Of a stretch of 64,000 nucleotides of DNA, positions 27,867-43,500 are shown piece after piece. The DNA is from Candidatus Nomurabacteria bacterium. Its GTDB lineage: Bacteria > Patescibacteriota > Minisyncoccia > Phycocordibacterales > UBA918. Position numbers and translations under genes: made by a program. The notes beneath the pieces were generated by a model that saw only the letters and a program-made list of their open reading frames with translations, ran no database searches and was not told where the DNA came from. The DNA lies in contig JACKGJ010000002.1 in the NCBI GenBank assembly GCA_020631995.1, forward strand, positions 26,773-90,772, in the 5' to 3' direction. Within the stretch, counting starts at the first letter, position 1, and each line of letters starts with the position of its first letter.

Positions 27867-27915
27867 ACAGAACAGCAACTTGACGTCGTGTTGCTGTTGT
27901 ATATACTATAGGCAT

Positions 27916-28495: not shown

Positions 28496-29569
28496 ATGGA
28501 ACTTACCCTCATTAAAGTATTTCTACCTACTGCACTCGCTTTCATAATTGGCGTGGCTACGACTCCTATTGTTACTCATTACTTATATAAGTATCAAGCG
28601 TGGAAGAAAGTATCTGGTAAAGGTAATGGCTATGGTGGGGGAGGGACACCACTTTTTGATGCTCTTCATAAAACTCGTGACACTAACACTCCGAGACTTG
28701 GTGGTATTGTGATTTGGTCTAGTGTGTTCTTAACGGTATTACTACTGGCTGTATTTGAATTTCTTTTCCCGGATTCTGTGTTTGGTAAGTTGAATTTTCT
28801 TTCACGGTCTCAGACGTGGTTACCGCTCCTGGCTCTTTTAATCGGTGCCTTGGTCGGTTTTATAGATGATGTACTTACTATTCGGGGAGATGGTAAGCAT
28901 TTTGCTGGCGGGCTTCCTTTATCACAGAGACTCTTGGTTGTGACTGCTACTGCTTTCTTGTCGGCCTGGTGGTTTTTTGACAAACTTGAAGTAGATAGTG
29001 TGTCCTTGCTTGGTTTTGGTGAATTGACCTTGGGTATTTGGTTTATTCCATTCTTTGTGTTTGTGGCGGTATGTGTGTATGCGTCGAGTGTTATAGATGG
29101 TATTGATGGCTTGGCCGGTGGAGTGTTTATGTTCATCTTTACCGCTTACGCTGGAATAGCACTGTGGCAAAATCAGATTGATATAGCGGCACTCTCCGCC
29201 ACCATAGTTGGTGGTATCTTGGCATTTTTATGGTTTAACATCCCTCCAGCCCGCTTCTATATGTCTGAAACTGGAGTAATGGCCCTCACAATGGCTCTAA
29301 CCATCATAGCTTTTATGACAGACACATTGGGAGAAGGGGAAGGTGTGTCCCTTTTGCCAGTGGTAGGATTTTTACTCGTAGCTACAGTAGTCGCTAATGC
29401 TGTGCAAGTAGCGTCCAAAAAAATCTTGGGGCGAAGGGTGTTAAAGATTGCCCCACTACATCATCACTTTGAAGCCGACGGTTGGCCGAACTACAAAGTG
29501 ACTATGCGTTATTGGGTACTCGGTTTCGTTCTGGCAGTCATTGGAATGATATTAGCGATCGCTATCTAA
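28496..29569 (+). CDS. mraY: phospho-N-acetylmuramoyl-pentapeptide transferase
   Basis: TPRLGGIVIW, GFIDDVLTI, IDGIDGLAGG, IAPLHHHFE. Extended -10 TGaTAGAAT (28481-28489) lies 6 nt before the ATG. Confidence 0.9.
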   Translation: MELTLIKVFLPTALAFIIGVATTPIVTHYLYKYQAWKKVSGKGNGYGGGGTPLFDALHKTRDTNTPRLGGIVIWSSVFLTVLLLAVFEFLFPDSVFGKLNFLSRSQTWLPLLALLIGALVGFIDDVLTIRGDGKHFAGGLPLSQRLLVVTATAFLSAWWFFDKLEVDSVSLLGFGELTLGIWFIPFFVFVAVCVYASSVIDGIDGLAGGVFMFIFTAYAGIALWQNQIDIAALSATIVGGILAFLWFNIPPARFYMSETGVMALTMALTIIAFMTDTLGEGEGVSLLPVVGFLLVATVVANAVQVASKKILGRRVLKIAPLHHHFEADGWPNYKVTMRYWVLGFVLAVIGMILAIAI

Positions 29570-29773
29570 ACTTCCAAAATCAGGTAAGGGAACCTTTCTT
29601 TCTGCGTTCGTTCGGTCATATCCAAACTTTCACCACGGCTTGGCTACGACACTCGCTCACTTGAAAGTAAAACCTAGGACTTCAGGGTTTTTCCTCAGTC
29701 ATCGTAGTTTGTTCTACGTATCCCTCACAAAAACCCTTCCAGTCTGTCGGTTTTCCTCTGATTTTGAAAGTTT
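29568..29773. repeat. intergenic imperfect-palindrome element, copy 1 (longest)
   Basis: Terminal inverted repeat AAACTTCCAAAATCAG (29568-29583) / CTGATTTTGAAAGTTT (29758-29773), 15 of 16 complementary. The core is GGGTTTTT-CCTCAGTCATCGTAGTTTGTTCTACGTATCCCTCAC-AAAAACCC (29685-29736). It starts inside the mraY stop codon. Confidence 0.7.
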
Positions 29774-29830
29774 ATAATTTCAACTCATTTCTACTATTAG
29801 ACTATAATAGTGTGTATCTAAAAACTAACT

Positions 29831-30940
29831 ATGGTATCTCCTAAATCAGTCGACAAAATATTACTGGGTATTGTACTCACTTTAGTGGCTGGTGGCTTTT
29901 TTATTTTTTCCTCGGCTTCACTCGGTCTATTAGTAGACGGCAATGTTAGATTTACTTCTGTTGCTTTTAATCAAATAGTCTTAGGTATTGGTGGGGGAAT
30001 GGTAGCTATGTTCATTATGAGCCGTATCTACTACCGCACTTGGAGACGGTTTGCTTTTTATATTTTTCTTCTAGGAGTTCTGGGGGCATTTCTGGTATTT
30101 GTGCCAGGGCTTGGACTTGAACACGGAGGGGCTAGGCGTTGGATAGATGTGGCTGGCTTTTCTTTTCAACCGGCAGAATTTTTGAAGATTGCTTTTGTTA
30201 TATATGTAGCTACTTGGTTTTCAGCTATTCGCAAAGGAACTAATAACTTTTGGCAAAGTACGGCACCGTTTATTGCTAGTGTATTTGTGGTTGGGGTGGT
30301 GATGTTGCTTCAGAAAGACACTGATACTTTCTTAATTATGGTGGCGGCTGGTACGTCTATGTTCTTCGTGCAAAGCGGAAAGTGGCGTGAGATTTTAATA
30401 ATGGGACTCGTGATGATAGCGTTGGTTGGTAGTCTCGCTTTCGTGCACGACTATGTTAAAAATCGCTTATTGGCTTTTGTTAATTCTGATTATGACCCAC
30501 AAGGAGCTGGTTACCAAGTGAAGCAGTCACTAATAGCTGTTGGTTCTGGCGGAGTGTGGGGGAGAGGCTTTGGTCAAAGTGTACAGAAGTTTGAATATCT
30601 GCCTGAGCCAATCGGAGACTCAATCTTTGCTGTCTATGCGGAAGAATTTGGTTTTGTTGGAGCTTTCATTTTAATTTTACTTTTTTCTGGTTTTGTTTTT
30701 AGAGGTTATCGATTAGCTACACATGCACCTGATGATTTTGGGATGTTGCTGGTAGTGGGGCTAGTTACTATGATTGTACTTCAGGCCTTTTTGCATATAG
30801 CGGCGATGGTGAAGTTTGCACCTATGCTCGGACTGCCATTACCTTTTATTAGTCATGGAGGAACCGCTATGCTTATGACTTTGGCAGCGGTAGGTATCAT
30901 ATTGAATGTATCGAAATACCAAAAGAGGATGATAAAATGA
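29831..30940 (+). CDS. ftsW: peptidoglycan glycosyltransferase, FtsW/RodA (SEDS) family
   Basis: QPAEFLKIAF, PEPIGDSIFAVYAEEFGF, LPFISHGGTAM. Multi-TM protein. Located between mraY and murG. Confidence 0.85.
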   Translation: MVSPKSVDKILLGIVLTLVAGGFFIFSSASLGLLVDGNVRFTSVAFNQIVLGIGGGMVAMFIMSRIYYRTWRRFAFYIFLLGVLGAFLVFVPGLGLEHGGARRWIDVAGFSFQPAEFLKIAFVIYVATWFSAIRKGTNNFWQSTAPFIASVFVVGVVMLLQKDTDTFLIMVAAGTSMFFVQSGKWREILIMGLVMIALVGSLAFVHDYVKNRLLAFVNSDYDPQGAGYQVKQSLIAVGSGGVWGRGFGQSVQKFEYLPEPIGDSIFAVYAEEFGFVGAFILILLFSGFVFRGYRLATHAPDDFGMLLVVGLVTMIVLQAFLHIAAMVKFAPMLGLPLPFISHGGTAMLMTLAAVGIILNVSKYQKRMIK

Positions 30941-30943
30941 TAA

Positions 30944-32071
30944 GTGAATATGAGAATAGTACTAGTAGGTGGTGGAACTGGTGGACACTTTTATCCGTTG
31001 ATGGCGGTAGGGGAGGCGTTGCGCGAGCACGACAAGAGAGAGGGAAGAGAAACCGAGGTTTTCTATATGGGTCCAGATGTTTATAGTGCAGAATCTCTAA
31101 ATGCTCTTAATATAAAATTTGTATATTGTTCGGCTGGCAAGAAACGCAAATATTTTTCTCTCTTAAATTACTTCGATACCCTGAAGACAGGTTATGGAGT
31201 GATTGTGGCTTTTGTGAAATTGTTAAAACTCTATCCTGATGCTGTGTTTAGCAAGGGGGGCTATACGAGTGTTCCTGTAACTATTGCAGCAGCACTACTG
31301 CGCATACCGGTCGTGATACACGAATCAGATGCTGTACCAGGTCGGGCTAATAAGCTAGCCTCTCGCTTTGCTCGCATTATCGGTATTGCTCATAATGACG
31401 TGGCAGAATTTTTCCCAAAAGAAAAGGTGATTAATGTTGGAATGCCGATAAGGCAGGCCTTTATGAAACCTGTTGCTGATCCACATACACTGCTTGGAAT
31501 TGGTAAGGACAAGCCAGTTATACTTGTGACTGGTGGTTCATCGGGGGCGGAAAGATTAAATGACTTCGTGCTTGCTGCCTTACCGAAGCTCCTCTCTGCC
31601 TATACTATAGTGCATCAGGTAGGGGAGAAGAATGTAGAAAAAGTATCAGCAGCGGCCACGTCACTTTTTACCGACCAGTCTGCTCTAGCTAATTATTATT
31701 TGTTTGGACATTTGCCACAGGAAAAATTTGCCGCCGCTTTCCAGGTGGCTGACCTTATCGTGACGCGCGCTGGGAGTACTACATTATTTGAAATAGCCTT
31801 AAGTCAGAAGCCATCTATTCTGGTACCTATACCAGAGGAGGTAAGTCGCGACCAGCGTAGTAACGCTTATGCATATGCCCGGGCTACAGGAGCCATTGTC
31901 CTTGAAGAGCATAATTTAAGTGATGATATTTTGGTTGCGGAAATAAACAGAATACTGGGCGACAGCCAAGTCTATCAGACGATGGTGGAGGGAACTAAGG
32001 CTTTGACATCTGACCAGGCCGCGTATAAGCTGGCGGATATATTACTTGAAATTGGCCACTCACATGAGTAA
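30944..32071 (+). CDS. murG: UDP-GlcNAc:lipid I N-acetylglucosaminyltransferase
   Basis: GGGTGGHFYPLMAV, LVTGGSSGAERLN, RAGSTTLFEIA. Start is GTG 30944 or ATG 30950, 3-9 nt after the ftsW stop. Confidence 0.85.
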   Translation: MNMRIVLVGGGTGGHFYPLMAVGEALREHDKREGRETEVFYMGPDVYSAESLNALNIKFVYCSAGKKRKYFSLLNYFDTLKTGYGVIVAFVKLLKLYPDAVFSKGGYTSVPVTIAAALLRIPVVIHESDAVPGRANKLASRFARIIGIAHNDVAEFFPKEKVINVGMPIRQAFMKPVADPHTLLGIGKDKPVILVTGGSSGAERLNDFVLAALPKLLSAYTIVHQVGEKNVEKVSAAATSLFTDQSALANYYLFGHLPQEKFAAAFQVADLIVTRAGSTTLFEIALSQKPSILVPIPEEVSRDQRSNAYAYARATGAIVLEEHNLSDDILVAEINRILGDSQVYQTMVEGTKALTSDQAAYKLADILLEIGHSHE

Positions 32072-32081
32072 ACGAAAACCG

Positions 32082-32190
32082 CCAAAATGAGCGATCTTCT
32101 TGCTCGGCGGAATTTTTATTCCACGCACCGTATAACTGATACGGCTTGGTCACAAAAATTCCGCCGAACGGCGAATCTCATCTCATTTTG
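32082..32190. repeat. intergenic imperfect-palindrome element, copy 2
   Basis: Outer stem CAAAATGAG (32083-32091) / CTCATTTTG (32182-32190). Inner perfect 14-bp stem TCGGCGGAATTTTT (32104-32117) / AAAAATTCCGCCGA (32154-32167). The 5' end CCGCCAAAATGAGCGATC resembles copies 1 and 4. Confidence 0.7.
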
Positions 32191-32232
32191 ACAATTTTCT
32201 GATTGCTGACCATACTGTAAGCTAAATCTCAA

Positions 32233-33699
32233 ATGAACTCTATTGAAAAAAAAGTCGTAACCCGCTTCGCGCCGTCTCCGACGGGCTTTCTACACATAGG
32301 AGGTGTGCGAACTGCTATCTTTTCGTACCTTTATGCCAAGAAAATGGGCGGTACTTTTATTTTGCGTATTGAAGACACTGACAAAGAACGTGAGGTGGCG
32401 GGCTCAATTGAACACATTATGGAGTCATTGCGTTGGCTGAACATTGAGTGGGATTATGGTCCTGATAAGCCGGGGACGTTCGGTTCTTGTATACAATCAG
32501 AGCGCCTCGCTAGTTATAAAAAATATGCACTACAACTGATTGATAAAGGTTTGGCATATCCTGACCCGTATACCAAAGAAGAAGTTGAGAAGTTTCGCCA
32601 AGACGCTGAAGCACAGAAAAAGCCGTTTCTATTTCGTAATTATCGTCCTGAGACATTTGATGAGTGGGATGGTAGTAAGCCACTTCGCCTCAAGGTGCCA
32701 GAGGTAAAACGATATGTTTGGGAAGATGCTGTTCGTGGCCAGCTTGAGGCAGGGGAGGAGATGTTGGACGATATCGTCTTGATAAAGTCAGACGGTTATC
32801 CAACTTACAACTTTGCTCATATTATTGATGACCTAGAGATGGGTGTCACCCATATAATGCGCGCGGATGAATTCATCGCTAGCCAGCCAAAGTTTTTATC
32901 CATCTATGATGCATTAGAAATTCCGTATCCAGTTTTTGTTTCACTACCACCGATTCTCCGAGATGATAGAACCAAGAAGCTCGGTAAAAGAGATGGTGCG
33001 AAAGATATTTTAGACTACAGAACAGAAGGTTATCTACCAGAAGCAATGTTTAATTTTCTAACATTGATTGGTTGGAATCCAGGTACTGAGAAAGAAGTCT
33101 TCACAAAGGATGAGTTAATAAATGAATTTGATCTTCATCGTATTCAAAAGTCAGGGGGAGCTTTTAACGAAGAGAAACTAAAGTGGTTAAACAAAGAACA
33201 CTTAAATAGTTTGAGTGCTTCTAAATATAAGGAGTTGGTGCTAAAAGCAATTCCTGCTAAGTACACAGGACTTCCATCTTTCACTGAAGACAGATTAGAA
33301 AAACTAATGCCTGTGATTCGTGAACGTACACATATTATGGCGGATGTAACGACTGCCTTTGAAGTATGCGAGTACGACTTCGTTTTTACAGACCCAGATG
33401 TTTCTCTAGATATATTGCGTTTTAAAAAGGATCCAGATGTACATTCTGCTGCCCCTCGGCTTCAACATCTGGCTCTGCTATTAGAAACTGCCGATTTTTC
33501 TTCACCTGACACGATAAAATCTGCGGTATGGGATTATGCTGAACAGGAGGGTAGGGGAGAGGTCTTATGGCCTATGCGTGTGGCTCTGACAGGCCTCGAA
33601 CGCTCTCCAGACCCTTTTACTGTGGCTTATATTATTGGTCAAACAGATACGCTACGCCGACTTCAGGCTGCATATGATAAGATCGGTCACGCTAAATAG
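32233..33699 (+). CDS. gltX: glutamyl-tRNA synthetase
   Basis: RFAPSPTGFLHIGGVRTAIF (HIGH region) and KLGKRDGA (KMSKS-type). Confidence 0.9.
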   Translation: MNSIEKKVVTRFAPSPTGFLHIGGVRTAIFSYLYAKKMGGTFILRIEDTDKEREVAGSIEHIMESLRWLNIEWDYGPDKPGTFGSCIQSERLASYKKYALQLIDKGLAYPDPYTKEEVEKFRQDAEAQKKPFLFRNYRPETFDEWDGSKPLRLKVPEVKRYVWEDAVRGQLEAGEEMLDDIVLIKSDGYPTYNFAHIIDDLEMGVTHIMRADEFIASQPKFLSIYDALEIPYPVFVSLPPILRDDRTKKLGKRDGAKDILDYRTEGYLPEAMFNFLTLIGWNPGTEKEVFTKDELINEFDLHRIQKSGGAFNEEKLKWLNKEHLNSLSASKYKELVLKAIPAKYTGLPSFTEDRLEKLMPVIRERTHIMADVTTAFEVCEYDFVFTDPDVSLDILRFKKDPDVHSAAPRLQHLALLLETADFSSPDTIKSAVWDYAEQEGRGEVLWPMRVALTGLERSPDPFTVAYIIGQTDTLRRLQAAYDKIGHAK

Positions 33700-33719
33700 C
33701 GTGACATCGGGGCAATCTT

Positions 33720-33815
33720 TCTAGATAAGGAACCGGCTCCGCCGATACATGCCTTTATTGTTTCCTCCGACAGCGAATAAAATTCGCTGTATTCGGCAAC
33801 ATCTAGTAAAATAAG
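33720..33815. repeat. intergenic element, copy 3 (short and degenerate, core only)
   Basis: TTTCCTCCGACA-GCGAAT-AAA-ATTCGC-TGTATTCGGCAAC has the same layout as the copy 1 and 5 cores but a different stem sequence (hairpin 33771-33789). GATAAGGAACC resembles GGTAAGGGAACC of copy 1. Confidence 0.45.
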
Positions 33816-33818
33816 AGG

Positions 33819-35135
33819 GTGATTGTAGCCAAATCGTATAAATACCTAATAGCTTTTATAATTGGTGCACTTATTTTGCCTGGAGTTTTTTTTATGATGC
33901 CAACGGTAAATGCTCAAACTGAAACTGAGCGTCTACAAGCAGAGATCAAAGAAAGAAATGCACGATTGTCTGAAATTGAGAAAGAAATCGCAGGGTACGA
34001 GGCGGAACTCAAGAAAGTAGGTGCAGAAAAAAGTACTCTACAAAGTGCCATTAACCAGTTGGAGCTTGAAAGAAAGAAAATTCAAGCTGACATTACCTAC
34101 ACGCAAAACAAAATCGATAACACCGACTTAGAAATAAATAAGCTCTCCTTGGAGATAGACGACACTAGTGAAAGCATTAGTAAAAGTGCAGCAGCGGTGG
34201 GGGAGATTCTGCGTGTTGTCGATCAAAATGACCAGGAGTCACTGATTGAATTATTTCTTAGGCACGAGAATCTTTCTGAATTCTGGAATGAAGTCGCAGG
34301 GCTAGAGAGCGTGCGCACAGTGATGAACGACCGTGTTTATGAACTAACGGTACTTAAAAGTTCCCTTGAGGGAAAAGTGGGGGAGGAGACAATGAAGCGT
34401 GGTGAATTGATGTCATTAAAGAATCAGTACTCGGGACAACAGGCTGTCTTGGATAATAATCGTAAGCAAAAAAGCGAGCTGTTAACCGCCACTAAAAATG
34501 AGGAGGCAGAGTATCAAAAGCTACTTAATGATAAAAAAGCTGCCCGTGAAAAGTTGGTGAAGGAAGTACAAGCGATTGAATCTGAACTTCAGTTTATGCT
34601 GGATCCCAACTCTATCCCGGTTAAGGGGAGTTCTGTATTCCAATGGCCACTTGAGAAGGTGGTGCTTACACAGTACTTTGGCTACACTAAATTCGCGCTT
34701 CAAAACCAAGGTGTATACAAAAACAATATGCACAATGGTATTGACCTCGGTGCTCCGACTGGTACTAAGATATTTGCCCCACTTGGTGGAACGGTACGCG
34801 CTACTGCCAATACTGACCTAGTACCAGGTTGTTATTCTTGGGGGCAATGGGCCTTAGTAGATCACCCAAATGGCCTCTCTACACTTTATGCTCATATGAG
34901 CAACACTTCTGTGTCAGCAGGACAAAAGTTGAATACAGGGGATTTGATAGGCTTTGTGGGAGCAACTGGCTACGCCACTGGTCCTCACCTTCACTTTACT
35001 GTTTATGTGAGTGCTGCAGTTAGCGTTAAGAGCTTCAATCAATTTAAGGCCGTTACTGGCTGTGGTGCGGCGCTTTCACCATTCTCCGCAGTGGAGGGTT
35101 ATTTAAACCCGATGGACTATTTACCCGCTTCCTAG
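33819..35135 (+). CDS. M23 family murein endopeptidase with N-terminal coiled coil (EnvC-like)
   Basis: Signal/TM YLIAFIIGALILPGVFFMMPTVNA, then a long coiled coil, then MHNGIDLGAPTGTKIFAP and GATGYATGPHLHFTVY. Confidence 0.85.
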   Translation: MIVAKSYKYLIAFIIGALILPGVFFMMPTVNAQTETERLQAEIKERNARLSEIEKEIAGYEAELKKVGAEKSTLQSAINQLELERKKIQADITYTQNKIDNTDLEINKLSLEIDDTSESISKSAAAVGEILRVVDQNDQESLIELFLRHENLSEFWNEVAGLESVRTVMNDRVYELTVLKSSLEGKVGEETMKRGELMSLKNQYSGQQAVLDNNRKQKSELLTATKNEEAEYQKLLNDKKAAREKLVKEVQAIESELQFMLDPNSIPVKGSSVFQWPLEKVVLTQYFGYTKFALQNQGVYKNNMHNGIDLGAPTGTKIFAPLGGTVRATANTDLVPGCYSWGQWALVDHPNGLSTLYAHMSNTSVSAGQKLNTGDLIGFVGATGYATGPHLHFTVYVSAAVSVKSFNQFKAVTGCGAALSPFSAVEGYLNPMDYLPAS

Positions 35136-35137
35136 AG

Positions 35138-35258
35138 TACTTTTCCAAAATTAGCGCATCTGCACTAGTGTCAGACTTTTACTCAATCACCTTAGGTTAA
35201 CTAAGGCTCTTTCGCAAAATTCCTCCAACTAATACACCCGCATCCGCTTTTGGAAGAA
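35138..35258. repeat. intergenic imperfect-palindrome element, copy 4
   Basis: ACTTTTCCAAAATTAGCGCATC at the 5' end and CCGCTTTTGGAAGAAGT at the 3' end (TTCCAAAA 35143-35150 / TTTTGGAA 35248-35255). Internal CCTTAG-gttaa-CTAAGG hairpin and an AAAATTCCTCCAAC box. Confidence 0.6.
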
Positions 35259-35396
35259 GTTAAATTTAGTAGTTCAAAGCTGTCCACAGTTTACGGCTAT
35301 TTTTATATCGGTTATACTCCGGATTAGGTGAGTACATAAGAGTGTGAGAGTGCGGAGTGACTTACAAAAGCCAAACCAAACTTAACGAGGAAGAAA

Positions 35397-35549
35397 ATGG
35401 AAAAAGATACGGGGACTAATCTCACTGAGACTGAATCCACCTCAAATGAATCAGATGCAGACAAGGGGAAGCTTACTCTCCAAAATAAGTTGATGATTCT
35501 TGCGGCAGTAGCCGTCATCTCTATTCCACTTTTTGGGATCGATCTTTGA
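35397..35549 (+). CDS. small (50 aa) membrane protein candidate
   Basis: Below the ORF-track cutoff. SD GAGGAAG lies 4 nt upstream. The sequence is MEKDTGTNLTETESTSNESDADKGKLTLQNKLMILAAVAVISIPLFGIDL, an acidic head followed by one TM helix. An intrinsic terminator follows about 30 nt later. The antisense track ORF 35324-35563 has neither signal. Confidence 0.4.
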   Translation: MEKDTGTNLTETESTSNESDADKGKLTLQNKLMILAAVAVISIPLFGIDL

Positions 35550-35580
35550 ACTAGTGAGTGCAAACAAATAATGAAGGGTG

Positions 35581-35611
35581 ACGTCGGCTAATTTGGCCGG
35601 CGTTTTGTATT
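35581..35611 (+). terminator. intrinsic terminator
   Basis: ACGTCGGC-taatttg-GCCGGCGT (one G-U pair) followed by TTTTGTATT. Confidence 0.5.
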
Positions 35612-35956
35612 GTCTTCTCTATATCATTTAATTTAGACATCCGTGTCGACGGAGTCTCTTCAGTCTAAAAACAGGATGTACGGTACGGGCTATATACACT
35701 ACTACCTCTCTTGTGTCTGGAAATAAACAGGGAAGTGAGTACCCTTAAACCTGAGCATTCAATTTTTACTTTTATGACTCCCCTACCGGATAGTGGGGGA
35801 GAGGGCCCAGGACTATCCCAGCCTAATTTTAAATTTTAATAAAATATTAAAAATGAGAGAACAAAATCTTTTCTAAAAAATTCTGTGTATGTCGGAGTAG
35901 GGGACTTCAGTTGAACAATATTGAAGATTTAAATCTAAATGCAAAATTTAAGCACC

Positions 35957-35965
35957 TGTGGATAA
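35957..35965 (+). promoter_or_regulatory. perfect DnaA box (TGTGGATAA = complement of TTATCCACA) upstream of the recombinase promoter
   Basis: Exact 9-mer. A perfect -10 TATAAT lies at 35994-35999, so the box sits just upstream of the expected -35 position. Confidence 0.5.
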
Positions 35966-36068
35966 CTTTGCTGTTGTGTTGTAATTTGCAGTATATAATT
36001 GAGTATTAGAGATATTATACTCAGTTCCATATATAGAGTTTAAGCCCTATTCTAACCATTCCTATATA

Positions 36069-37103
36069 ATGTTCTCTAAGTCCCTCCATACTTTCCCCTC
36101 ACCTATGAATGACAAAAAAGAAACAACAGAAGTTACTGAAACCTTAAAGACTGCTAAATTTGCCGTCCTCCCCCACGTGTCTCATTTTCTGACTTCAATC
36201 CTGGCCAATAATTATTCCAGTAAAACTCACGATTCATATAAACGTGACCTTTTGACCTTTGATCGGTTTTTGGCCTCTGAAATGGGACATATTACCTTCA
36301 GTGAGATAGATAAGCACGTTATAGAGCTTTTTAAGGCTTATTTGAACTCCGATGACCGGCACACGACACTTAATACTAAAGTTCCAGAGCGTCGTCTTAA
36401 AAGCGGTTCTGTGAATCGAATGTTGTCGTCACTGCGTCGATATTTTGCGTATTTGATCGATATGGACTACGAGTCGCCGCTTGCACCAACTGCAATCAAA
36501 CTCGTGCGGGCTGAAAAAAAGCATGGACAAGTTGCTGAATTGCATGAATTAATTTCGCTGATTGAGTCACCAACTAAGTTTGAAAAAAATAAATTTGTGG
36601 CCACGCGTAATCGTGCGATGCTTGAGACCTTATTAGCAAGCGGAATGCGTATTTCTGAGCTTCTAGGGCTCAGACTTAATCAACTTGATAAGTCAGGTCG
36701 TATTTTTATTGAAGGAAAAGGTAAAAAGCAGCGCTTTATATATTTAACTGAGCGTGCAAGGCGACATATAGATGATTATCTCAAATTAAGAGTAGACGAC
36801 CTTCCCTATTTATTTATTCCAAAAAGAGGCCAGAATGCTGGAGAAAAAAACAAACGCATTTCTTCCAATTACCTCCAAATGAAGATTAAAAAGTATCGGG
36901 AGCTTCTTGGTATTAATGTGCCAACCTCTGCTCACTCGCTACGTCACGGCTTCGCCACTTACTTGGCTGAACAAGGTGCCAACCCAGCCGCTATTCAGGT
37001 GCTTTTAGGACACGAGTCGCTCGATACTACCACTCGATACGTTCATGCATCAGATCGTTACGCTGAAGAAACTCATCGTAAGTTTCATCCGCTTGGAAAG
37101 TAA
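36069..37103 (+). CDS. tyrosine recombinase, XerC/XerD family
   Basis: ASGMRISELLGLRLNQL (Arg), IEGKGKKQRFIYL (Lys), HSLRHGFATYLAEQG (HxxR), LLGHESLDTTTRYVH (His and Tyr). An N-terminal SAM-like core-binding domain is present. Confidence 0.85.
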   Translation: MFSKSLHTFPSPMNDKKETTEVTETLKTAKFAVLPHVSHFLTSILANNYSSKTHDSYKRDLLTFDRFLASEMGHITFSEIDKHVIELFKAYLNSDDRHTTLNTKVPERRLKSGSVNRMLSSLRRYFAYLIDMDYESPLAPTAIKLVRAEKKHGQVAELHELISLIESPTKFEKNKFVATRNRAMLETLLASGMRISELLGLRLNQLDKSGRIFIEGKGKKQRFIYLTERARRHIDDYLKLRVDDLPYLFIPKRGQNAGEKNKRISSNYLQMKIKKYRELLGINVPTSAHSLRHGFATYLAEQGANPAAIQVLLGHESLDTTTRYVHASDRYAEETHRKFHPLGK

Positions 37104-37120
37104 CGAAATTATGATTAGAC

Positions 37121-37155
37121 AAAACAAAAACTCCCAAAAGGGAGTTTTTGTTTTG
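37121..37155. terminator. bidirectional intrinsic terminator
   Basis: CAAAAACTCCC-aaaa-GGGAGTTTTTG flanked by an A-run and a T-run. It serves the recombinase (+) and the convergent small ORF (-). Confidence 0.8.
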
Positions 37156-37169
37156 AATTAAATTTCTAA

Positions 37170-37283
37170 CTAGCCTTCACAACTGACACACGTTGATTCA
37201 CCGGCAAAATGAACGCGAGGTTTAGCTGCTGCGGCACCTTCTACAGCTGGTAGTTCGAAGTTGAATTCATTTGTGTTTTGCAT
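37170..37283 (-). CDS. 37-aa peptide ORF candidate (Cys/Ser/Thr-containing C-terminus)
   Basis: MQNTNEFNFELPAVEGAAAAKPRVHFAGESTCVSCEG. It ends 15 nt before the bidirectional terminator. No convincing SD or -35 was seen. Below the track cutoff. Confidence 0.25.
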   Translation of the reverse strand: MQNTNEFNFELPAVEGAAAAKPRVHFAGESTCVSCEG

Positions 37284-37387
37284 GACTTATATTTTAACAT
37301 TTTGAGCCAGGACCGCGATGTGTATAACTAGTCTACATTATTACGGCTATAGATAAAGATTTATTTGACCCCGCTCCCCCACCAAAC

Positions 37388-37415
37388 TTGACAATATTTT
37401 AGGCAGTGTTATTTT
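37388..37415 (+). promoter_or_regulatory. sigma70-type promoter (TTGACA-N16-TATTTT)
   Basis: Perfect -35 TTGACA at 37388-37393 and -10 TATTTT at 37410-37415. Confidence 0.55.
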
Positions 37416-37421
37416 AATGGA

Positions 37422-37537
37422 GTAATTTGTTCTTGTTGAGTCCCCGAGAGAGTGGCTGGTCCCCGTTGCCCCGCCAAACCAACTGCTCTCCCCTGCCCCC
37501 AAGATTTTCCTAGGAAAATCTTGGGGGCTTTTCTTTT
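37422..37537 (+). ncRNA. candidate ~115-nt C-rich small RNA, delimited by its own promoter and terminator
   Basis: Only a 2-codon ORF follows the promoter. The body is GAGTCCCCGAGAGAGTGGCTGGTCCCCGTTGCCCCGCCAAACCAACTGCTCTCCCCTGCCCCC. It ends in a perfect 32-nt palindrome plus a T-tract. It matches no RNA family I recognise. Confidence 0.35.
37496..37537 (+). terminator. strong intrinsic terminator
   Basis: CCCCCAAGATTTTCCTAGGAAAATCTTGGGGG (perfect palindrome, 37496-37527) followed by CTTTTCTTTT. Confidence 0.85.
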
Positions 37538-37598
37538 AGTACATATCTCTTTCTAAAAAAACTGCAAATATAAAAATATTATTGTTACAATTGCTTGA

Positions 37599-38396
37599 AT
37601 GAAGTCTTCTCCAAATCAACGTTTTAATGATCTTGATTTGTCCGACTGGAAGAACCTAGATATTTGGACCGATAGTCTATGGCTGATACCAGAACGAGAT
37701 AAAACTGGCAAACATGATGGTTTTTACCATGGTAACTTTGTACCTCAACTTCCACGTCAATTAATATCTAGATATAGTAAAAAGAATGAGGTAATCTTTG
37801 ATCCTTTTCTGGGTAGCGGTACCACAGCGTATGAGGCGGAAGCTCTGGATAGGTGTTTTGTTGGTATTGAGATTCAAAAGGAACTAGTAGATCACGTAAC
37901 GAATCGCTTGGGACCTAGTGACAACTTTTCTGCTGTACTACAAGGTGACAGCACTGAGAAGAAATCTTTTAGTAAAGTTAAAGAATTCTTACGTCTACAT
38001 AAGCTAGAACGTGTTCATTTGGCTATATTGCATCCCCCGTATGCTGACATAGTAAAGTTCAGCGACCTCAATGGAGATTTGTCAAACTCCCCTTCTTTAA
38101 CAGACTTCCTCGATAAATTTTCTGCCGTGGTTCAAAATACCCTAGATATATTAGAGGATGGGCGATATTTGGCAGTGGTAATTGGAGACAAATACAGTAA
38201 AGGACAATGGATCCCTCTGGGTTTTTATTGTATGAACGAGGTCCAAAAATTAGGCCCCACACTCAAAAGTATTATAATTAAAAATATGGCGGGCAACAGA
38301 GCAAAGCAAAACAAGGAAGGAATTTGGAGGTATCGAGCATTGTCTTCTGATTACTACATTTTTAAACACGAATACATACTTCTCTTCAAGAAATAA
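37599..38396 (+). CDS. DNA methyltransferase (N4/N6 family) with motif I before motif IV
   Basis: FVPQLPRQLISRYS (motif X-like), IFDPFLGSGTTAYEAEAL (motif I), FVGIEIQ, then AILHPPYADIV (motif IV, with His in place of D/N/S). Extended -10 TGtTACAAT (37583-37591) lies 7 nt before the ATG. Confidence 0.7.
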   Translation: MKSSPNQRFNDLDLSDWKNLDIWTDSLWLIPERDKTGKHDGFYHGNFVPQLPRQLISRYSKKNEVIFDPFLGSGTTAYEAEALDRCFVGIEIQKELVDHVTNRLGPSDNFSAVLQGDSTEKKSFSKVKEFLRLHKLERVHLAILHPPYADIVKFSDLNGDLSNSPSLTDFLDKFSAVVQNTLDILEDGRYLAVVIGDKYSKGQWIPLGFYCMNEVQKLGPTLKSIIIKNMAGNRAKQNKEGIWRYRALSSDYYIFKHEYILLFKK

Positions 38397-38399
38397 TAT

Positions 38400-39260
38400 A
38401 TGGCTATAGTTAACATACGAGAAGTGAATTTTATTAAACTAAAATCACTCAAAAAAGAATATCTTAAGGAATTTTGTGAAAAATTTTCTATAGCTATTTC
38501 CTCTAACATCGCAGGGACAATTGAAAAAATACTAGAGGATTTTGATAGTGGACGTATTAAGACTTCTGATATTAATGATTTTATTAAATCAAAATATCAG
38601 AACTTAAGGTCAGAAGAAATTATAAAAACAGGAGCTACACATAAAGCGATTCTCTCAGAGTTGAATAAAATTGACGTGCGTACTTGGGGCATGGTTCAGG
38701 GTGCTGTAGACGCACATATACAATCTAATTACGTTAGAAAATTTTTTCGGTTCGAAGATGTAATTTCTGCAATACGAGGGGGGCTCTACCAAACTATTGA
38801 GTCATATACCCTGTCAACTTGGTACAATCACTGGAGTACTGTTTTCTTAGAAGACTTAATAAATGAGAATAAGAATGTCGTTCCGATAATAAAAAAAGTT
38901 AAGGGTGTGGACATTATCTGGAATGAACAGCCTTTGGACATTAAGGTTACTAATTTACCAAGAGAGTGGTTTAAGAATGGACTTACTTTCGAAGATGCGT
39001 TGAGTGACCCAAAAAAAGTTTGTAAATATATGTATCAACTCCAAGGAGCACAACGCTTTGGTAGTGAGAATAGGCTGTTTATAGTGATTTTTGATAGAAA
39101 TAAACCTGAAGAGAGTTGGAAGATAAAACGTGATTACAACCTTATAAAATCAAAGATCAATGACTTTTTTGATCAGGCAGTTCAACTTGATGCAATTAAC
39201 TTTAGTTTTGGTCGTAATCAGTATTTAGCACACAGTAAGGTAATGTTTATAGTGAAATGA
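38400..39260 (+). CDS. putative type II restriction endonuclease
   Basis: 286 aa, sandwiched between two methyltransferase genes with 3-nt gaps. Possible PD-(D/E)xK text: GVDIIWNEQPLDIKVT. No family was recognised by eye. Confidence 0.45.
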   Translation: MAIVNIREVNFIKLKSLKKEYLKEFCEKFSIAISSNIAGTIEKILEDFDSGRIKTSDINDFIKSKYQNLRSEEIIKTGATHKAILSELNKIDVRTWGMVQGAVDAHIQSNYVRKFFRFEDVISAIRGGLYQTIESYTLSTWYNHWSTVFLEDLINENKNVVPIIKKVKGVDIIWNEQPLDIKVTNLPREWFKNGLTFEDALSDPKKVCKYMYQLQGAQRFGSENRLFIVIFDRNKPEESWKIKRDYNLIKSKINDFFDQAVQLDAINFSFGRNQYLAHSKVMFIVK

Positions 39261-39263
39261 TAT

Positions 39264-40334
39264 ATGAATTATATTGGCAGTAAACTCTCATTGCTTCAAT
39301 TTTTGGAAGAATCAATTGACAAAGTGGCAGGTAAAGACTGTCGTACTTTTTGTGATTTATTTGCTGGAACTGGAGCAGTTGGATTGCATTTTAAGAAGAA
39401 AGGCTACAAAGTTATTGCCAATGACATTCAGTTTTATAGCTACGCTTTAAATCGCCACTACATTGGTAACCACAAACCTTTAAAATTTTCTGGTTTAGTT
39501 AAAGACATACCGAATTTAGAGGAAGTGAATGTTACCGATCGAGCAGTTGTTGTATGTGATCACTTGTCGGACCTTCAAGGAACCGAGGGTTTTATATTTA
39601 ACAATTATTGCCTTGGAGGAACAAATTTGTCAGCAGAACCCCGTCAATATTTTTCTGACGATAATGGAAAAAAGTGTGATGCTATTCGTCAGAAAATTGA
39701 ATCCTGGAAAAAGACTGACTTATTGAACGATGATGAATATTACTTTCTTTTAACCACCCTTCTTGAGTCTATTGATAAGTACGCAAACACTGCAGCAGTG
39801 TATGGAGCTTTTTTGAAGAAGCTCAAGAAATCTGCACAAAAGAGTATAGTATTGACCCCAGCAATGTTGACTATAAATGATCAAGAACACTTAGTTTTCA
39901 ATAAAGATGTGAATAGTTTAGCGAAGGAGATTGAGGGTGACATACTCTACTTGGATCCTCCGTACAATCAGAGACAATACGCTACCAACTATCACTTGTT
40001 GGAAACTATAGCTAAATATGACAATCCGGAGATCCATGGAAAGACTGGTTTGCGTGAATACTCAGCACAGAAATCTCTATATTGTTCCAGAAAAGAGGTA
40101 AAGTCTGCCTTCAAGGACCTCATTCTTAGTGCAAAAGCCAAATATATATTTCTTAGCTACAATAACGAAGGTTTAATGTCTGCAGGTGACGTGAAAGAAA
40201 TAATGAGCTTACGAGGAAAGTATGGTTTTTTCACTAAGGAATATGGTCGTTTTAAAGCAGATAAGTCTGAGAAGAGAAATTATAAATCTAATAGAACTAC
40301 AGAATATTTGCATTATGTAGTTTGTAATTCTTGA
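39264..40334 (+). CDS. D12-class (Dam-like) N6-adenine DNA methyltransferase
   Basis: MNYIGSKLSLLQFL, FCDLFAGTGAVG (FxGxG), ILYLDPPYNQRQY (DPPY). The motif order is alpha class. Confidence 0.85.
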   Translation: MNYIGSKLSLLQFLEESIDKVAGKDCRTFCDLFAGTGAVGLHFKKKGYKVIANDIQFYSYALNRHYIGNHKPLKFSGLVKDIPNLEEVNVTDRAVVVCDHLSDLQGTEGFIFNNYCLGGTNLSAEPRQYFSDDNGKKCDAIRQKIESWKKTDLLNDDEYYFLLTTLLESIDKYANTAAVYGAFLKKLKKSAQKSIVLTPAMLTINDQEHLVFNKDVNSLAKEIEGDILYLDPPYNQRQYATNYHLLETIAKYDNPEIHGKTGLREYSAQKSLYCSRKEVKSAFKDLILSAKAKYIFLSYNNEGLMSAGDVKEIMSLRGKYGFFTKEYGRFKADKSEKRNYKSNRTTEYLHYVVCNS

Positions 40335-40357
40335 GATTATTTAGCACTTGATAAAGC

Positions 40358-40390
40358 AAAAGCGCGGGCTGAAGGCCTGCGCTTTTCTTT
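40358..40390 (+). terminator. intrinsic terminator of the R-M operon
   Basis: AAAAGCGCGGGC-tgaag-GCCTGCGCTTTT followed by CTTTC. Confidence 0.75.
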
Positions 40391-40622
40391 CTATATTGAA
40401 TTGACTGATGTGTCTATTGACTCACAGTCAAACTCCGGCGGATTTGGTCGAATGCGGCGATTAGGGAGTCGCGGTTAAATTCTGTCACTGTCCCCTCTTC
40501 GTAATTATCTATCCAAGAGTAATTATTTCGTTTGCGGAAAGCTAAAACTAGAGGTTTGAGTACTAAGTGATTATATGCTTAACTTGCGCTAGCGAATCGA
40601 TAGTTCCCTACAGGAGGAGAGC

Positions 40623-41441
40623 ATGACTAATGCAAACATAGTCTCTGTCTCTGTTAATGAGATTTGGGACAGGGTCAGAGCAAGGCTTAAGGCCACTATT
40701 GGACCCGAGAAGTACAATAGCTGGTTTACCTCTGCTCAGTTGGAGGAAACGCACTCGAATGGAGTGACTGCCACTGTCTCGGTCGCAACGCCCTTCTTGG
40801 TGAATTGGATTAACAATACGTATCACAGTGTCATCCAAGAACTCTGGCAGGAGTATCAGCCTGAAACCAAAGTGCGAGTTGTTCTTCGCAAAAGGACTAA
40901 TGGAGAAAAGATCTTTGATCCGGAGGCGCCAGATAATAACAAACGGAAAGCGACCTCTGTTCCTAAAGACAGGACAAGAAAATCACCTACCAGCAAGGGA
41001 AAAGCAACTACTAAGCCTGCCTCTGGCAAGCTATCAAAAATACCTTCACCAGACTCGTCAGCTTTGGAGGAAGCAAAGTTGATGGTTTTATACCGTCTCA
41101 CTAGTACAGAGGGGGTGATCAAAGTCGAGCTGTGTAGGGCGTTTGTTATACGTGCCTATGGGGTAGATTATGATAAACTGGTCTCTGATTGTGTTAAATG
41201 GTCAGTGACGATACCGAGGCACATTGCGATATACTTGGCCAAGAAGCTGACCCCGCGTTCTTTGGCTGAGATAGGAGGTCTGTTCGGTGGTCGGGACCAC
41301 ACTACAGTGGTCAACTCAATAAAAAGAATAGAGACCCTTTGTGTTCGCAATCCGGAGTTCAATGACTTGATCAGTTCATACATTGATCACTTTGAGGCCT
41401 GTGTGGAACTCTCAAAGAGATCAATCGTCGAGGCGCCATAA
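40623..41441 (+). CDS. mini-DnaA: DnaA domain I + basic linker + domain IV (HTH), no AAA+ domain III
   Basis: 272 aa. N-terminus: IWDRVRARLKATIGPEKYNSWFTSAQLEE...ATVSVATPFLVNWINNTYHSVIQELWQEY (DnaA_N pattern). C-terminus: VTIPRHIAIYLAKKLTPRSLAEIGGLFGGRDHTTVVNSIKRIE (DnaA signature GGRDHTTV). No Walker A or B motif anywhere. Strong SD AGGAGGAG lies 3-4 nt upstream. Confidence 0.7.
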   Translation: MTNANIVSVSVNEIWDRVRARLKATIGPEKYNSWFTSAQLEETHSNGVTATVSVATPFLVNWINNTYHSVIQELWQEYQPETKVRVVLRKRTNGEKIFDPEAPDNNKRKATSVPKDRTRKSPTSKGKATTKPASGKLSKIPSPDSSALEEAKLMVLYRLTSTEGVIKVELCRAFVIRAYGVDYDKLVSDCVKWSVTIPRHIAIYLAKKLTPRSLAEIGGLFGGRDHTTVVNSIKRIETLCVRNPEFNDLISSYIDHFEACVELSKRSIVEAP

Positions 41442-41463
41442 GACGCCTCAACTCACAGACTCC

Positions 41464-41490
41464 AAACGCCTTCGGGCGTTTTTTCTTTTT
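41464..41490 (+). terminator. intrinsic terminator
   Basis: AAACGCC-ttcg-GGCGTTT followed by TTTCTTTTT. Confidence 0.8.
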
Positions 41491-42309
41491 CTAAATAATC
41501 ACCCCTCCCAATAGCTCCTTAAGAGCATTATCATAATCAGGGCGGTGGAGGGTGAGATGGATAGTACGGGTACTTCCCTGGCTAAAGTGACTCTCTAACT
41601 CCGGATGTCTTTCCAGATAATTGACCAGTTTATTAGGGATGATTTCGTCTTGGGAAAGGATCTTAAGACTTGAATTAAAATGGGCGCGCAGACCGTCTTT
41701 GAGTTTGGTGTAGTGGGTACAGCCAAGAATGACCGTATCAAATTGATTACTCCCCTTTTCTTCTTCAATTGTCACTATGGCTTTACTCAAAGCTTCCGCA
41801 CGATCCCCGCTCTCGATTAGAGGGACCAGTTCTGGTGTCGGTACTGAATAGAGTTTAATCTTGCGTGGTGAGCGATTCTGAAGCTCCAGAGCGTATTTAC
41901 CAGACTCGACTGTGCGCTTGGTGGCAATAAGTAGGGTTGAGGTACTATCACTATTAATCAAGGCTTCGACAGTTGGAATAACGACGCCTAAGATGCGTCG
42001 GTCTGGGTAGTTATCTTTAAGGAAGCCGTCTTGAAGTCGACGGAGTGTTTCCGCAGAGGCGGTGTTACAAGCAATGACAACTAGCAGACAGTCTTTTTTA
42101 AAGAGTGCTTCTACCCCGGCTTTGGTTAGTTGGTATATCTCCTCTTCAGTCTTGTCGCCCAAAGGTAGGTTCGCAGTGTCACCATAGTAGACATAGTCAT
42201 ATTGTGGCAATTCCTTAGCCACTACCTTCAGAATAGTCAGACCACCGAGCCCAGAATCGAAGAAACCGATCTTTCCCGCTTTTTGCACATTTGGAGCTTC
42301 TTCAGTCAT
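41491..42309 (-). CDS. murI: glutamate racemase
   Basis: IGFFDSGLGGLTILK, VIACNTASA, ILGCTHY. TATACT (complement of 42316-42321) lies 6 nt before the ATG. Confidence 0.9.
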   Translation of the reverse strand: MTEEAPNVQKAGKIGFFDSGLGGLTILKVVAKELPQYDYVYYGDTANLPLGDKTEEEIYQLTKAGVEALFKKDCLLVVIACNTASAETLRRLQDGFLKDNYPDRRILGVVIPTVEALINSDSTSTLLIATKRTVESGKYALELQNRSPRKIKLYSVPTPELVPLIESGDRAEALSKAIVTIEEEKGSNQFDTVILGCTHYTKLKDGLRAHFNSSLKILSQDEIIPNKLVNYLERHPELESHFSQGSTRTIHLTLHRPDYDNALKELLGGVII

Positions 42310-42395
42310 ATATACAGTATAATGGTTATAGATGTAGCATTATAAGCTTAGATAAGTTAGTTAACTAGCTTCCTAAATAAAAGATTTCAAAATTT

Positions 42396-42785
42396 ATGGA
42401 CTTTATTGATAAAACTCTACGTGCACATGGCGCCATGGTGGGCCGTATGCTCATAGGCTTACTATTCGTATTCTCAGGAGCGGGAATTGTGATGAATGGA
42501 GTAGATGGTTTCGTTGGTATGATCGAGACTCGAGGTTTACCAATGGCTTCCCTGCTTGCTTGGGTAGTGGTGCTCATTAAAATTGCCGCTGGTGGCGCTT
42601 TAATGTTGGGGTACAAAACCAAGGAGGCTGCTTTGGCACTCTTGGTCTTCACACTCCTTGCGACTATCTTCTACCATATGAATCTTGAAGATGTTAACTT
42701 GTTCAAGAATTTGGCGATTATGGGTGGGTTGATGTATGTATATATCTACGGCCCGGGACCGGGCTGGAAACTTAAGACTTCCTAA
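42396..42785 (+). CDS. DoxX family membrane protein
   Basis: 129 aa with four hydrophobic segments. GRMLIGLLFVFSGAGIV fits the DoxX-type N-terminus. Confidence 0.7.
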   Translation: MDFIDKTLRAHGAMVGRMLIGLLFVFSGAGIVMNGVDGFVGMIETRGLPMASLLAWVVVLIKIAAGGALMLGYKTKEAALALLVFTLLATIFYHMNLEDVNLFKNLAIMGGLMYVYIYGPGPGWKLKTS

Positions 42786-42787
42786 AA

Positions 42788-42910
42788 AACTTTCTTAAAA
42801 TCGGCACATACGCACCAGTTTCATAATTTTCCTCGGTCGTCGTAGATGGACCTACGCCTCCCTCGTAAAATTCTTCCAACTGGCACGTCTGCGCTCGATT
42901 TAAAAAAAGT
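42788..42910. repeat. intergenic imperfect-palindrome element, copy 5
   Basis: AACTTTCTTAAAATCGGCACATACGCACCAGT pairs imperfectly with ACTGGCACGTCTGCGCTCGATTTAAAAAAAGT. The core AATTTT-CCTCGGTCGTCGTAGATGGACCTACGCCTCCCTCGT-AAAATT (42825-42872) is collinear with the copy 1 core. It starts 3 nt after the doxX stop. Confidence 0.7.
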
Positions 42911-42937
42911 CTGGACGAGAGGAAAATTCTACACATA

Positions 42938-42967
42938 CAAAAGGCCGCCCTTACGGGCGGCTTTTTG
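42938..42967. terminator. bidirectional intrinsic terminator between convergent genes
   Basis: CAAAAG-GCCGCCC-ttac-GGGCGGC-TTTTTG. Confidence 0.85.
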
Positions 42968-42976
42968 TATGTGGTC

Positions 42977-43444: not shown

Positions 43445-43500
43445 AAAGGACTGAAAATTGTGAGTAACTTCACTGGTTCTTCATCAATTTTCAGTCCTTT
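43445..43500. promoter_or_regulatory. perfect 16-bp inverted repeat with a 24-nt spacer
   Basis: AAAGGACTGAAAATTG (43445-43460) / CAATTTTCAGTCCTTT (43485-43500). No T-tract follows on either strand. It lies in the 5' region of the transglycosylase gene. Confidence 0.5.

Follow-up and report, generated by a model that had tools for sequence, protein, structure and literature searches.

Introduction

Small, non-coding, multi-copy repeats of 100-200 nt that form imperfect palindromes are known from several bacterial groups, such as ERIC/IRU in enterobacteria, Correia/NEMIS in Neisseria and BOX/RUP/SPRITE in pneumococci. Repeats like miniature inverted-repeat transposable elements (MITEs) are co-transcribed with flanking genes, vary between strains and are able to donate promoter hexamers, and Correia elements duplicate TA. 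Genomes of the Candidate Phyla Radiation (CPR)/Patescibacteria are regarded as minimal and almost repeat-free. Here, we describe seven copies of a hairpin-forming insert of about 120 bases in a 64-kb stretch of a Candidatus Nomurabacteria genome (contig JACKGJ010000002.1 of GCA_020631995.1; the whole stretch is hereafter called the window). The insert shares with the repeats named above all the general features listed for them except the TA duplication.

Other described systems resemble the element in different respects. Repetitive extragenic palindromic (REP) sequences are palindromes of 20-40 nt and REP doublets forming hairpins (REPINs) are inverted doublets of two of them, while in IS200/IS605 insertion sequences the structured strand is the one that carries the upstream target (top strand). 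Like the REP/REPIN repeats linked to REP-associated tyrosine transposases (RAYTs) and the palindromes derived from IS200/IS605, the element is a hairpin extragenic repeat with long persistence and single-strand-specific structure, and it seems to insert beside a short specific sequence without duplication. Integron attC sites, 57-141 nt long, are functional as the folded bottom strand; the element is likewise an imperfect palindrome placed right after open reading frames (ORFs) in fixed orientation, with structure conserved over sequence and a folded bottom strand. Finally, Rickettsia palindromic elements (RPEs), selfish palindromes inserted into a reduced genome, can be translated within host proteins, as one copy of the element (c6) is in the tail of ScpB.

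Copies of the element in the window

An earlier prediction, made from the letters of the window, had proposed that five intergenic segments, following the plus-strand genes mraY, murG, gltX, an M23 peptidase gene and doxX, belong to one family; Pfam agreed with these gene identities. We built a covariance model (R1) from four of the segments (c1, c2, c4 and c5; Table 1), a second one (R2) from 58 sequences, and a gapped core pattern (TTTTNNTC..C..C.TA.....TA.G..T...TC..AAAAW). With MAFFT, c1, c2, c4 and c5 aligned full-length once extra sequence had been taken out of c1. They scored 78-109 bits with R1, and E-values of the window copies reached 1e-14 to 1e-21. The core pattern occurred at these four window sites against 0.00 expected in shuffles, so that AT-rich low complexity could not be the sole cause of the similarity. 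The fifth segment (copy 3) matched neither R1 nor R2 with filters off; the family therefore stood with four of its five proposed members, and the deviating stem of copy 3 could no longer serve as covariation-like evidence.

Of six window sites matched by R1, five had E <= 4e-6; the other was a 56-nt hairpin that may be an apex-deleted remnant of the element. R2 contributed one further copy, c7. The weaker sixth copy of the original prediction was real, although it had been placed at 26720-26770 and not where R1 located it (c6). This copy overlapped the final 44 nt of scpB, had a perfect terminal inverted repeat of 16 nt, and carried the pyrimidine-rich strand on the plus strand and the better-folding, purine-rich one on the minus strand. 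Its 5′ arm coded for the last 14 amino acids and the stop codon of ScpB. The resulting tail, SAFENDESPRQATE, was common to two element-carrying relatives and absent from an ortholog without the element (locus L128, see below).

The unusual length of c1 was due to an 83-nt sequence nested inside it, which was recognised by alignment with an insert-free relative of c1 (L091, 6717-6839). BLAST matched this 83-nt sequence only to its own locus, no other copy being found, and its own fold was not significant. Searching metagenome contigs with a 36-mer pattern specific to c1 gave no match and thus no near-identical sister copy, and a recent transposition of c1 is unsupported. The 3′ arm of c2 provided the -35 hexamer of a promoter-like site upstream of gltX; promoter-like sites occurred at chance frequency in this region overall, and this one is only a lead. 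An ortholog of c5 was present in a related genome (L127, 18948-19071), and c7 began 3 nt past the stop codon of a YqeY-like gene (Pfam YqeY). We also considered a small peptide encoded on the purine-rich strand, and rejected it since a mini-ORF with Shine-Dalgarno sequence and AUG was present in c5 alone and was not conserved.

Seven copies in 64 kb correspond to about 100 copies per Mb between essential genes, which would make the element a substantial and overlooked source of change in CPR genomes. Seven plus-strand genes of the window were followed by a copy, and none of about 20 minus-strand genes (43400-64000) was. This lack may reflect chance or a strand or replication effect; the GC skew within the window tracked gene orientation, so replication direction cannot be inferred from it.

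Presence and absence at orthologous gene junctions

The window was 99.85% identical to contig JACKGK010000001.1 of GCA_020632025.1. Through MurG homologs we reached three syntenic loci, L126, L127 (Patescibacteria UBA6201) and L128, whose MurG proteins were 89%, 84% and 66% identical to that of the window, respectively (MurG of a Kaiserbacteria genome showed 60% identity). The organism is thus a CPR bacterium from the vicinity of Paceibacterota/Kaiserbacteria. For each genome, stretches of 8-20 kb were compared.

Empty sites in relatives, named in the original prediction as a way to check it, were found at three junctions. Between mraY and ftsW, the window contained 261 nt including c1, and the site was empty in L126 (TAA TATT ATG), L127 (TAA TCTTCAT ATG) and L128. 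Between murG and gltX, the window, L126 and L127 carried c2, and in L128 the genes overlapped as ATGA. Downstream of the M23 peptidase gene, the site was filled in the window (c4) and L126 and empty in L127 and L128. The flanks of this last site were colinear (65 versus 69 nt to a shared block), and the insert lay exactly after TAG with no duplication. L128 had zero copies across 20 kb, and its genes overlapped or sat a few bases apart. The element is thus inserted DNA that is present or absent at orthologous gene junctions.

At the only reconstructed sites, c1 and c4 were flush with TAA and TAG, respectively, and the nested sequence of c1 also followed TAA. Some other copies began 4-12 nt past a stop codon, or inside a gene. 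TA was found in the 5′ flank of 23 of 93 copies, and each of the first three element bases was A in 70-76 of the 93. The orthologous c2 copies of L126 and L127 showed compensatory changes, T-A to C-G in one pair and G-C to G.A to T-A in another. After the same S7 gene, two close relatives with identical S7 C-termini (L062 and L013) carried different subfamilies of the element, which we take as re-use of the site.

Fold, covariation and strand asymmetry

Covariation was assessed on a MAFFT alignment of 58 copies that had not been fitted to any structure. RNAalifold predicted 34 pairs on this alignment, and 30 of them showed compensatory double changes. Paired cells made up 87.5%, compared with 65% after shuffling and about 45% when the partners were slid, and 0 of 500 shuffles matched any of five covariation measures. 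Base pairing of the element is therefore kept by compensatory change. The conserved fold supposed in the original prediction was confirmed in this way, but on the complement of the mRNA.

The complement of the upstream-gene strand folded better in 95 of 99 copies, with means of -43.5 versus -32.5 kcal/mol. In the window copies the gap was 10-25 kcal/mol (minus/plus strand: c2, -62.7/-43.0; c4, -47.6/-22.3; c5, -52.2/-32.8; c6, -54.1/-40.6; c7, -41.9/-31.4), and the sense folds reached z = -6.3 for c2, -4.6 for c5 and -1.7, not significant, for c4. G.U cells in the consensus pairs numbered 185 on the complementary strand versus 54 on the sense strand (p = 6e-18), and the sense strand was pyrimidine-rich (C 2718 versus G 1713). 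Its A.C and pyrimidine-pyrimidine mismatches coincided with G.U and tandem G.A pairs of the complement, on which the invariant sense TC dinucleotides appear as symmetric GA. Three tandem G.A motifs result on the complement, two of them (G.A/A.G) close to the apex and one, with AGAU facing AGAU, in the lower stem, so that the purine-rich strand would be a nearly continuous rod. Copies from Saprospiraceae, Ezakiella-like genomes and Bdellovibrionota/Desulfobacterota had this asymmetry as well. Because mutation is expected to turn C into T on the non-template or leading strand, which would give the opposite pattern, we interpret the asymmetry as a sign of selection acting on the purine-rich single strand. 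Altogether, structural selection acts on the purine-rich strand; in CPR, this is the complement of the mRNA of the abutting gene.

In its architecture, the element combined a conserved apical module with more variable lower stems. The outer 12-19 bp of the stem varied from copy to copy yet paired nearly perfectly, and outer stems could take in native coding bases, such as those for the final KR and the stop codon of S9. Stems that are locus-specific and still paired suggest that the 3′ arm fits itself to the gene end, possibly through template-switch correction of quasi-palindromes, a process known to create hairpins (PMC10710096). Shorter copies were symmetrical at both ends, and no one-sided truncations were seen.

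Position and orientation relative to genes

In the CPR loci, the upstream ORF was co-oriented with the element for 77 of 89 copies. At 65 copies a same-strand ORF ended between -13 and +26 nt from the element start, a single one of them lying more than 15 nt away; that all 65 were co-oriented follows from the search, which covered same-strand ORFs only. Most commonly, the stop codon overlapped the first one or two bases of the element. The only opposite-strand ORF abutting an element did so with its start (L031), and at convergent gene pairs the element abutted the co-oriented gene in 14 of 14 cases. Two loci had copies on both strands, each after its own gene, indicating that orientation tracks the gene and not a fixed strand. 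The pneumococcal repeats, which have been described as parasitic elements, lie on the leading strand in about 61% of cases (PMC3049150), whereas the orientation of the CPR element relative to the abutting gene is near-absolute.

The upstream genes were housekeeping genes, namely those for S7, S9, S18, L11, NusG, RpoC, RpoD, SecY, aminoacyl-tRNA synthetases, YchF, glyceraldehyde-3-phosphate dehydrogenase (GAPDH) and M23 peptidases, and several sites were common to different genomes. In Saprospiraceae, which have longer intergenic regions, copies were not flush with stop codons, and the upstream gene was co-oriented in 5 cases and opposite in 9. Adjacency to stop codons is partly due to compactness, because empty sites leave only 0-7 nt between genes.

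Family size and spread

When one-genome-per-species contigs were searched, the core pattern was found at no fewer than (that is, at least) 120 genome loci, and R1 gave 104 non-overlapping matches in the first 100 of them, mostly full-length at about 120 nt. The covariance-model scan proposed with the original prediction thus yielded additional copies both in the window (c6 and c7) and beyond. The taxa among the matches listed were Saccharibacteria, Paceibacterota (Nomura-, Kaiser- and Zambryskibacteria), Saprospiraceae, cultured Ezakiella isolates, a Clostridiales metagenome-assembled genome, Bdellovibrionota and Desulfobacterota, plus a few doubtful ones. Hence, the element is not specific to one lineage, as had been supposed, and the family spans several phyla. 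The 2.5-kb contig L013 (JBPOIE010000016.1), which bears the label Bdellovibrionota, encodes an S7 C-terminus equal to that of Paceibacterota L062 over 25 amino acids. It is probably a mis-binned CPR contig, so part of the non-CPR labels among the matches may be unreliable.

Copies outside CPR had the same 45-nt apical core atop longer lower stems. CPR copies measured about 120 nt, Ezakiella-like ones about 140 nt and those of Saprospiraceae 161-204 nt (140-205 nt outside CPR as a whole). One Saprospiraceae genome contained near-identical copies of 161-204 nt with conserved 25-nt terminal inverted repeats in unrelated loci, which indicates a recent burst. Some copies of Saprospiraceae SLDF01 (L065, L093 and L103) carried an extra 33-nt perfect palindrome, CCTGCCCGCCACCTGTCGATGGCAGCAGGCGGG, in the 5′ arm, a nested insertion analogous to that of c1. 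Tandem copies were found at L088 and L105. The conserved core shared by cultured Ezakiella and Saprospiraceae points to horizontal spread and a common mobilising activity.

Rfam 15 at gathering level gave 0 matches in the window and 6 loci. In E-value mode, with c5, an Ezakiella-like and a Saprospiraceae copy on both strands, only chance-level sub-threshold matches such as MIR2630 appeared, and the remaining weak matches fell in the neighbouring flanks and not in the element. The core pattern found nothing in viral contigs, and BLAST found nothing in plasmids and phages. In the literature on repeats, MITEs and hairpins in CPR, Saccharibacteria and Parcubacteria, no description of the family was found. 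For metagenome-assembled genomes, the covariance model offers a possible tool for masking or annotating these elements and for spotting mis-binned contigs.

Comparison with described families

The element differed from each of its closest counterparts. Compared with MITE-like repeats, its ends are only loosely conserved in CPR, its structure is strand-specific with G.U and G.A pairs, its core is common to several phyla and not to one genus or family, and its copies lie inside operons rather than mainly between convergent genes. A TA-duplicating MITE was rejected, since TA stood at both flanks in only 8 of 93 copies and no duplication was seen at the reconstructed sites, which sets the element apart from Correia-type MITEs. 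The apical stem of some copies contains a GTAG/CTAC motif, recalling the described GTAG-tagged REPs (PMC3733652); in the element, however, GTAG is not invariant (the apical stem reads CGTAG, CGTAC, CGTAT or CTTAG), and in contrast to REP/REPIN sequences the element is a single uninterrupted hairpin, about 55 bp long. Neither a RAYT nor a TnpA gene was found in the 8-20 kb stretches.

With regard to integrons, the R′′ (RYYYAAC) and R′ (GTTRRRY) ends of attC were absent from the window copies and 90 other copies, the only match being a GTTAAAT in c4 that is due to chance. There was neither an intI gene nor a cassette array, the neighbours being essential genes such as mraY, murG, ribosomal-protein genes and rpoC; identity with attC was thus rejected. 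Unlike RPEs, most copies lie past a stop codon and not in frame inside genes, and lineages and sequences differ as well. Taken together, structure on the strand facing away from the mRNA sense, insertion directly at stop codons and lack of duplication match no described bacterial repeat family, and may lead to a new mechanism of transposition or recombination.

Origin of the element

The element is multi-copy, has no coding content of its own and is spread across phyla. Small, non-coding, multi-copy and variable at orthologous sites, it has these features in common with DDE-type MITEs, and in such broad terms the MITE/ERIC/Correia-like nature suggested by the original prediction was borne out. 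We favour the view, with a probability of about 0.55, that it is a non-autonomous mobile hairpin element with single-strand-specific structure. It would be moved in trans via a single-stranded intermediate of the purine-rich strand, which could be DNA handled by an enzyme of HUH/Y1 or recombinase type, or RNA copied back into DNA, and would land on the coding strand directly 3′ of TAA or TAG, leaving no target duplication. In ultra-compact CPR operons, the few bases past a stop codon may be nearly the sole tolerated site. Selection may strengthen the orientation bias by disfavouring mRNAs with the hairpin in its very stable orientation, and the CPR survivors would then be those in the orientation that gives the weaker, pyrimidine-rich version in the mRNA.

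Several observations weigh against this reading. Unlike DDE-type MITEs, the element had no target-site duplication at either reconstructed site (mraY-ftsW and after the M23 gene). Ends of CPR copies always pair, but partial sequence conservation is limited to AAAC....AAAAT, and outer stems are specific to each locus; in Saprospiraceae, a 25-nt terminal inverted repeat is conserved. The folded strand is the complement of the strand bearing TAA/TAG, opposite to the situation in IS200/IS605, and the features of the element thus fit neither type cleanly. Copies in CPR were 60-80% identical to one another, with no recent burst evident there. Copies kept at orthologous sites after S7, S9, L11, NusG, RpoC and M23 genes, with compensatory changes, could mean host function and not parasitism. 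Furthermore, neither a transposase nor a reverse transcriptase or other partner gene turned up among the scanned ORFs of the window or beside the copies. Around the recent Saprospiraceae copies the neighbours were ordinary genes, with no transposase among the 25 most frequent of the 110 Pfam families matched by 80 flanking ORFs. An autonomous insertion sequence with the same ends was not seen in the window or in the 8-20 kb loci, for which no dedicated search was made.

A host-beneficial role of the sense-strand RNA, between cistrons or in 3′ untranslated regions (UTRs), would account for part of these observations. The element could be an RNase III/Y processing or punctuation signal, a stabiliser, an attenuator, or a translational-coupling or S1-binding module, maybe domesticated from a mobile ancestor. 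Its transcribed orientation directly past stop codons, often within operons and 8-40 nt from the next start, agrees with this, as do the retention of copies at orthologous sites after ribosomal-protein, nusG, rpoC, rpoD and secY genes, the compensatory substitutions among c2 orthologs and the fact that the sense RNA of c2 and c5 still folds. However, the sense strand is systematically weaker, being mismatched at the G.U and tandem G.A positions of the complement, the sense fold of c4 is not significant, particular copies are absent in close relatives, one of which has none in the same operon, and the Saprospiraceae copies show no gene-orientation bias. Canonical terminators do exist, and a scan for G+C-rich stems directly followed by a U-run flagged those nearby and not the elements on the sense strand; an intrinsic terminator was accordingly rejected. 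We therefore regard this role as unlikely, including the 3′UTR function in mRNA stabilisation or termination raised by the original prediction. A function of the complementary strand, as a one-way antisense terminator or insulator, or as an attC-like folded bottom-strand DNA site for a recombinase or HUH enzyme, appears to be just as doubtful. Structure, G.U pairs and purine-rich tandem G.A motifs all lie on this non-coding strand, AUUUU follows its very stable hairpin (-42 to -63 kcal/mol), and the fixed orientation abutting ORF 3′ ends together with the bottom-strand fold recalls attC. On the other hand, most copies lack the attC core sites, their neighbours are housekeeping genes and not cassettes, and an A/U-rich stem beside a U-run makes a poor terminator. 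An insulator would also leave the apical conservation across phyla and the random orientation in Saprospiraceae unexplained. A link to the Xer-like integrase near c4 (36069-37103) was discarded, since the gene is also present in the copy-free L128.

The orientation, the TA/AAAC junction, the lack of duplication and the structured strand antisense to the gene could be jointly explained by retro-copies comparable to short interspersed nuclear elements. A structured purine-rich RNA ending in U's would be reverse-transcribed from the 3′-OH at an A-rich stop codon (TAA-A) of the coding strand, so that a pyrimidine-rich cDNA continues from the gene. We consider this improbable, as no reverse transcriptase was found nearby (window ORFs and copy flanks were scanned) and no master RNA gene was found, the short copies lose both ends symmetrically, and the outer stems are locus-specific and include native coding bases as in the S9 tail. 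Chance similarity, by which AT-rich low complexity and fortuitous palindromes would mimic a family, is excluded; the short end motifs alone do occur at chance frequency, but the counts of the core pattern, the R1 E-values, more than 100 homologous copies elsewhere and the covariation do not. Explanations beyond these have a slim share of the probability.

Returning to a mobile hairpin element, its side effects on the host are in part observed directly. Genes that overlap or lie 4-7 nt apart are pulled apart, a 3′UTR hairpin is added, and the element can donate a C-terminal peptide tail (ScpB) and may donate a -35-like hexamer (gltX). Thereby translationally coupled genes are separated, proteins gain peptide tails, and new promoters may arise. 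More tentatively, and with considerably less conviction than the mobile nature itself, the element could represent a new cross-phylum class, a rod-like purine-rich single-stranded DNA or RNA with three tandem G.A motifs, inserted strand-specifically at the stop codons TAA/TAG of transcribed genes without target duplication, or else domesticated by CPR as strand-specific operon punctuation.

Other inserts and features of the region

Table 1. Element copies and other features, with positions counted from the first letter of the window
Feature	Position	Strand	Description
c6	26611-26730	+	R1 39 bits, E = 4e-6; R2 62 bits
c1	29568-29773	+	directly after mraY stop; R1 78 bits; contains nested insertion
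Nested sequence in c1	29588-29670	+	83 nt; after GGTAA, ends GTAA; from c1 versus L091 alignment
c2	32076-32197	+	4 nt after murG stop; R1 109 bits, R2 86.5 bits
Promoter-like site upstream of gltX	32188-32216	+	TTGACA-17-CATACT; consensus scan, 10/12 matches
Copy 3 of the original prediction	33700-33818 (predicted as 33720-33815)	+	between gltX and M23 peptidase gene; non-member
c4	35137-35261	+	directly after TAG stop of M23 peptidase gene; R1 108 bits
c5	42787-42910	+	directly after doxX stop; R1 108 bits, R2 89.5 bits
Intrinsic terminator	42937-42968	both directions	between c5 and convergent gene; outside element
56-nt hairpin	43445-43500	+	R1 E = 0.056, R2 E = 0.2; weak; outer stem of model only
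c7, divergent member	58719-58838	+	R2 43 bits, E = 2e-6

Copy 3 is a separate hairpin insertion outside the family. BLAST found it only at this locus (the window and the near-identical L001-L003) and at the same junction of L127, with 86% identity. The insert was missing in L126 and L128 and enlarged in L127, where it had grown to 347 nt (12747-13093) by additional perfect palindromes. This unrelated hairpin at the gltX-M23 junction shows that other hairpins also build up at gene junctions. In L127, a 195-nt insert (9806-10000) lay between ftsW and murG, whose spacing in the window is 3 nt; it had its own long inverted repeat, CCCGTTAGAAATAGCGGACACG ... CGTCCGCGTCCTATTTCTAACGGG, and gave no match with the family models. 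The terminator located 26 nt downstream of c5 was canonical, as read directly, and was recovered by the terminator scan and by weak Rfam terminator-type matches. Two further terminator-like hairpins, 18 kb apart (37121-37155 and 55415-55449), shared the 35-nt sequence AAAACAAAAACTCCCAAAAGGGAGTTTTTGTTTTG with 91% identity in inverted orientation.

The remaining observations concern the genes of the window. A single ORF of 7294 amino acids (3994-25878, plus strand) was built from long internal repeats of several families (periods of about 1434, 651 and 153 nt) and ended in a Pro/Glu-rich low-complexity tail; similarly huge ORFs stood at its position in relatives. Between the D-Ala-D-Ala carboxypeptidase gene and mraY lay a pair of genes (27856-28451), the second of them YafQ-toxin-like, which was absent in L126, L127 and L128, where its flanking genes were 10-12 nt apart. 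The Xer-like tyrosine recombinase gene was followed by a variable restriction-modification island (36069-40334 in all), which contained N6_N4 and D12-class methyltransferases in the window, a C5 methylase and a Bsp6I-type endonuclease in L126, and other genes in L128. Finally, an ORF of 272 amino acids (40623-41441), conserved in L126, combined the N-terminal and C-terminal DNA-binding domains of DnaA with no AAA+ core.

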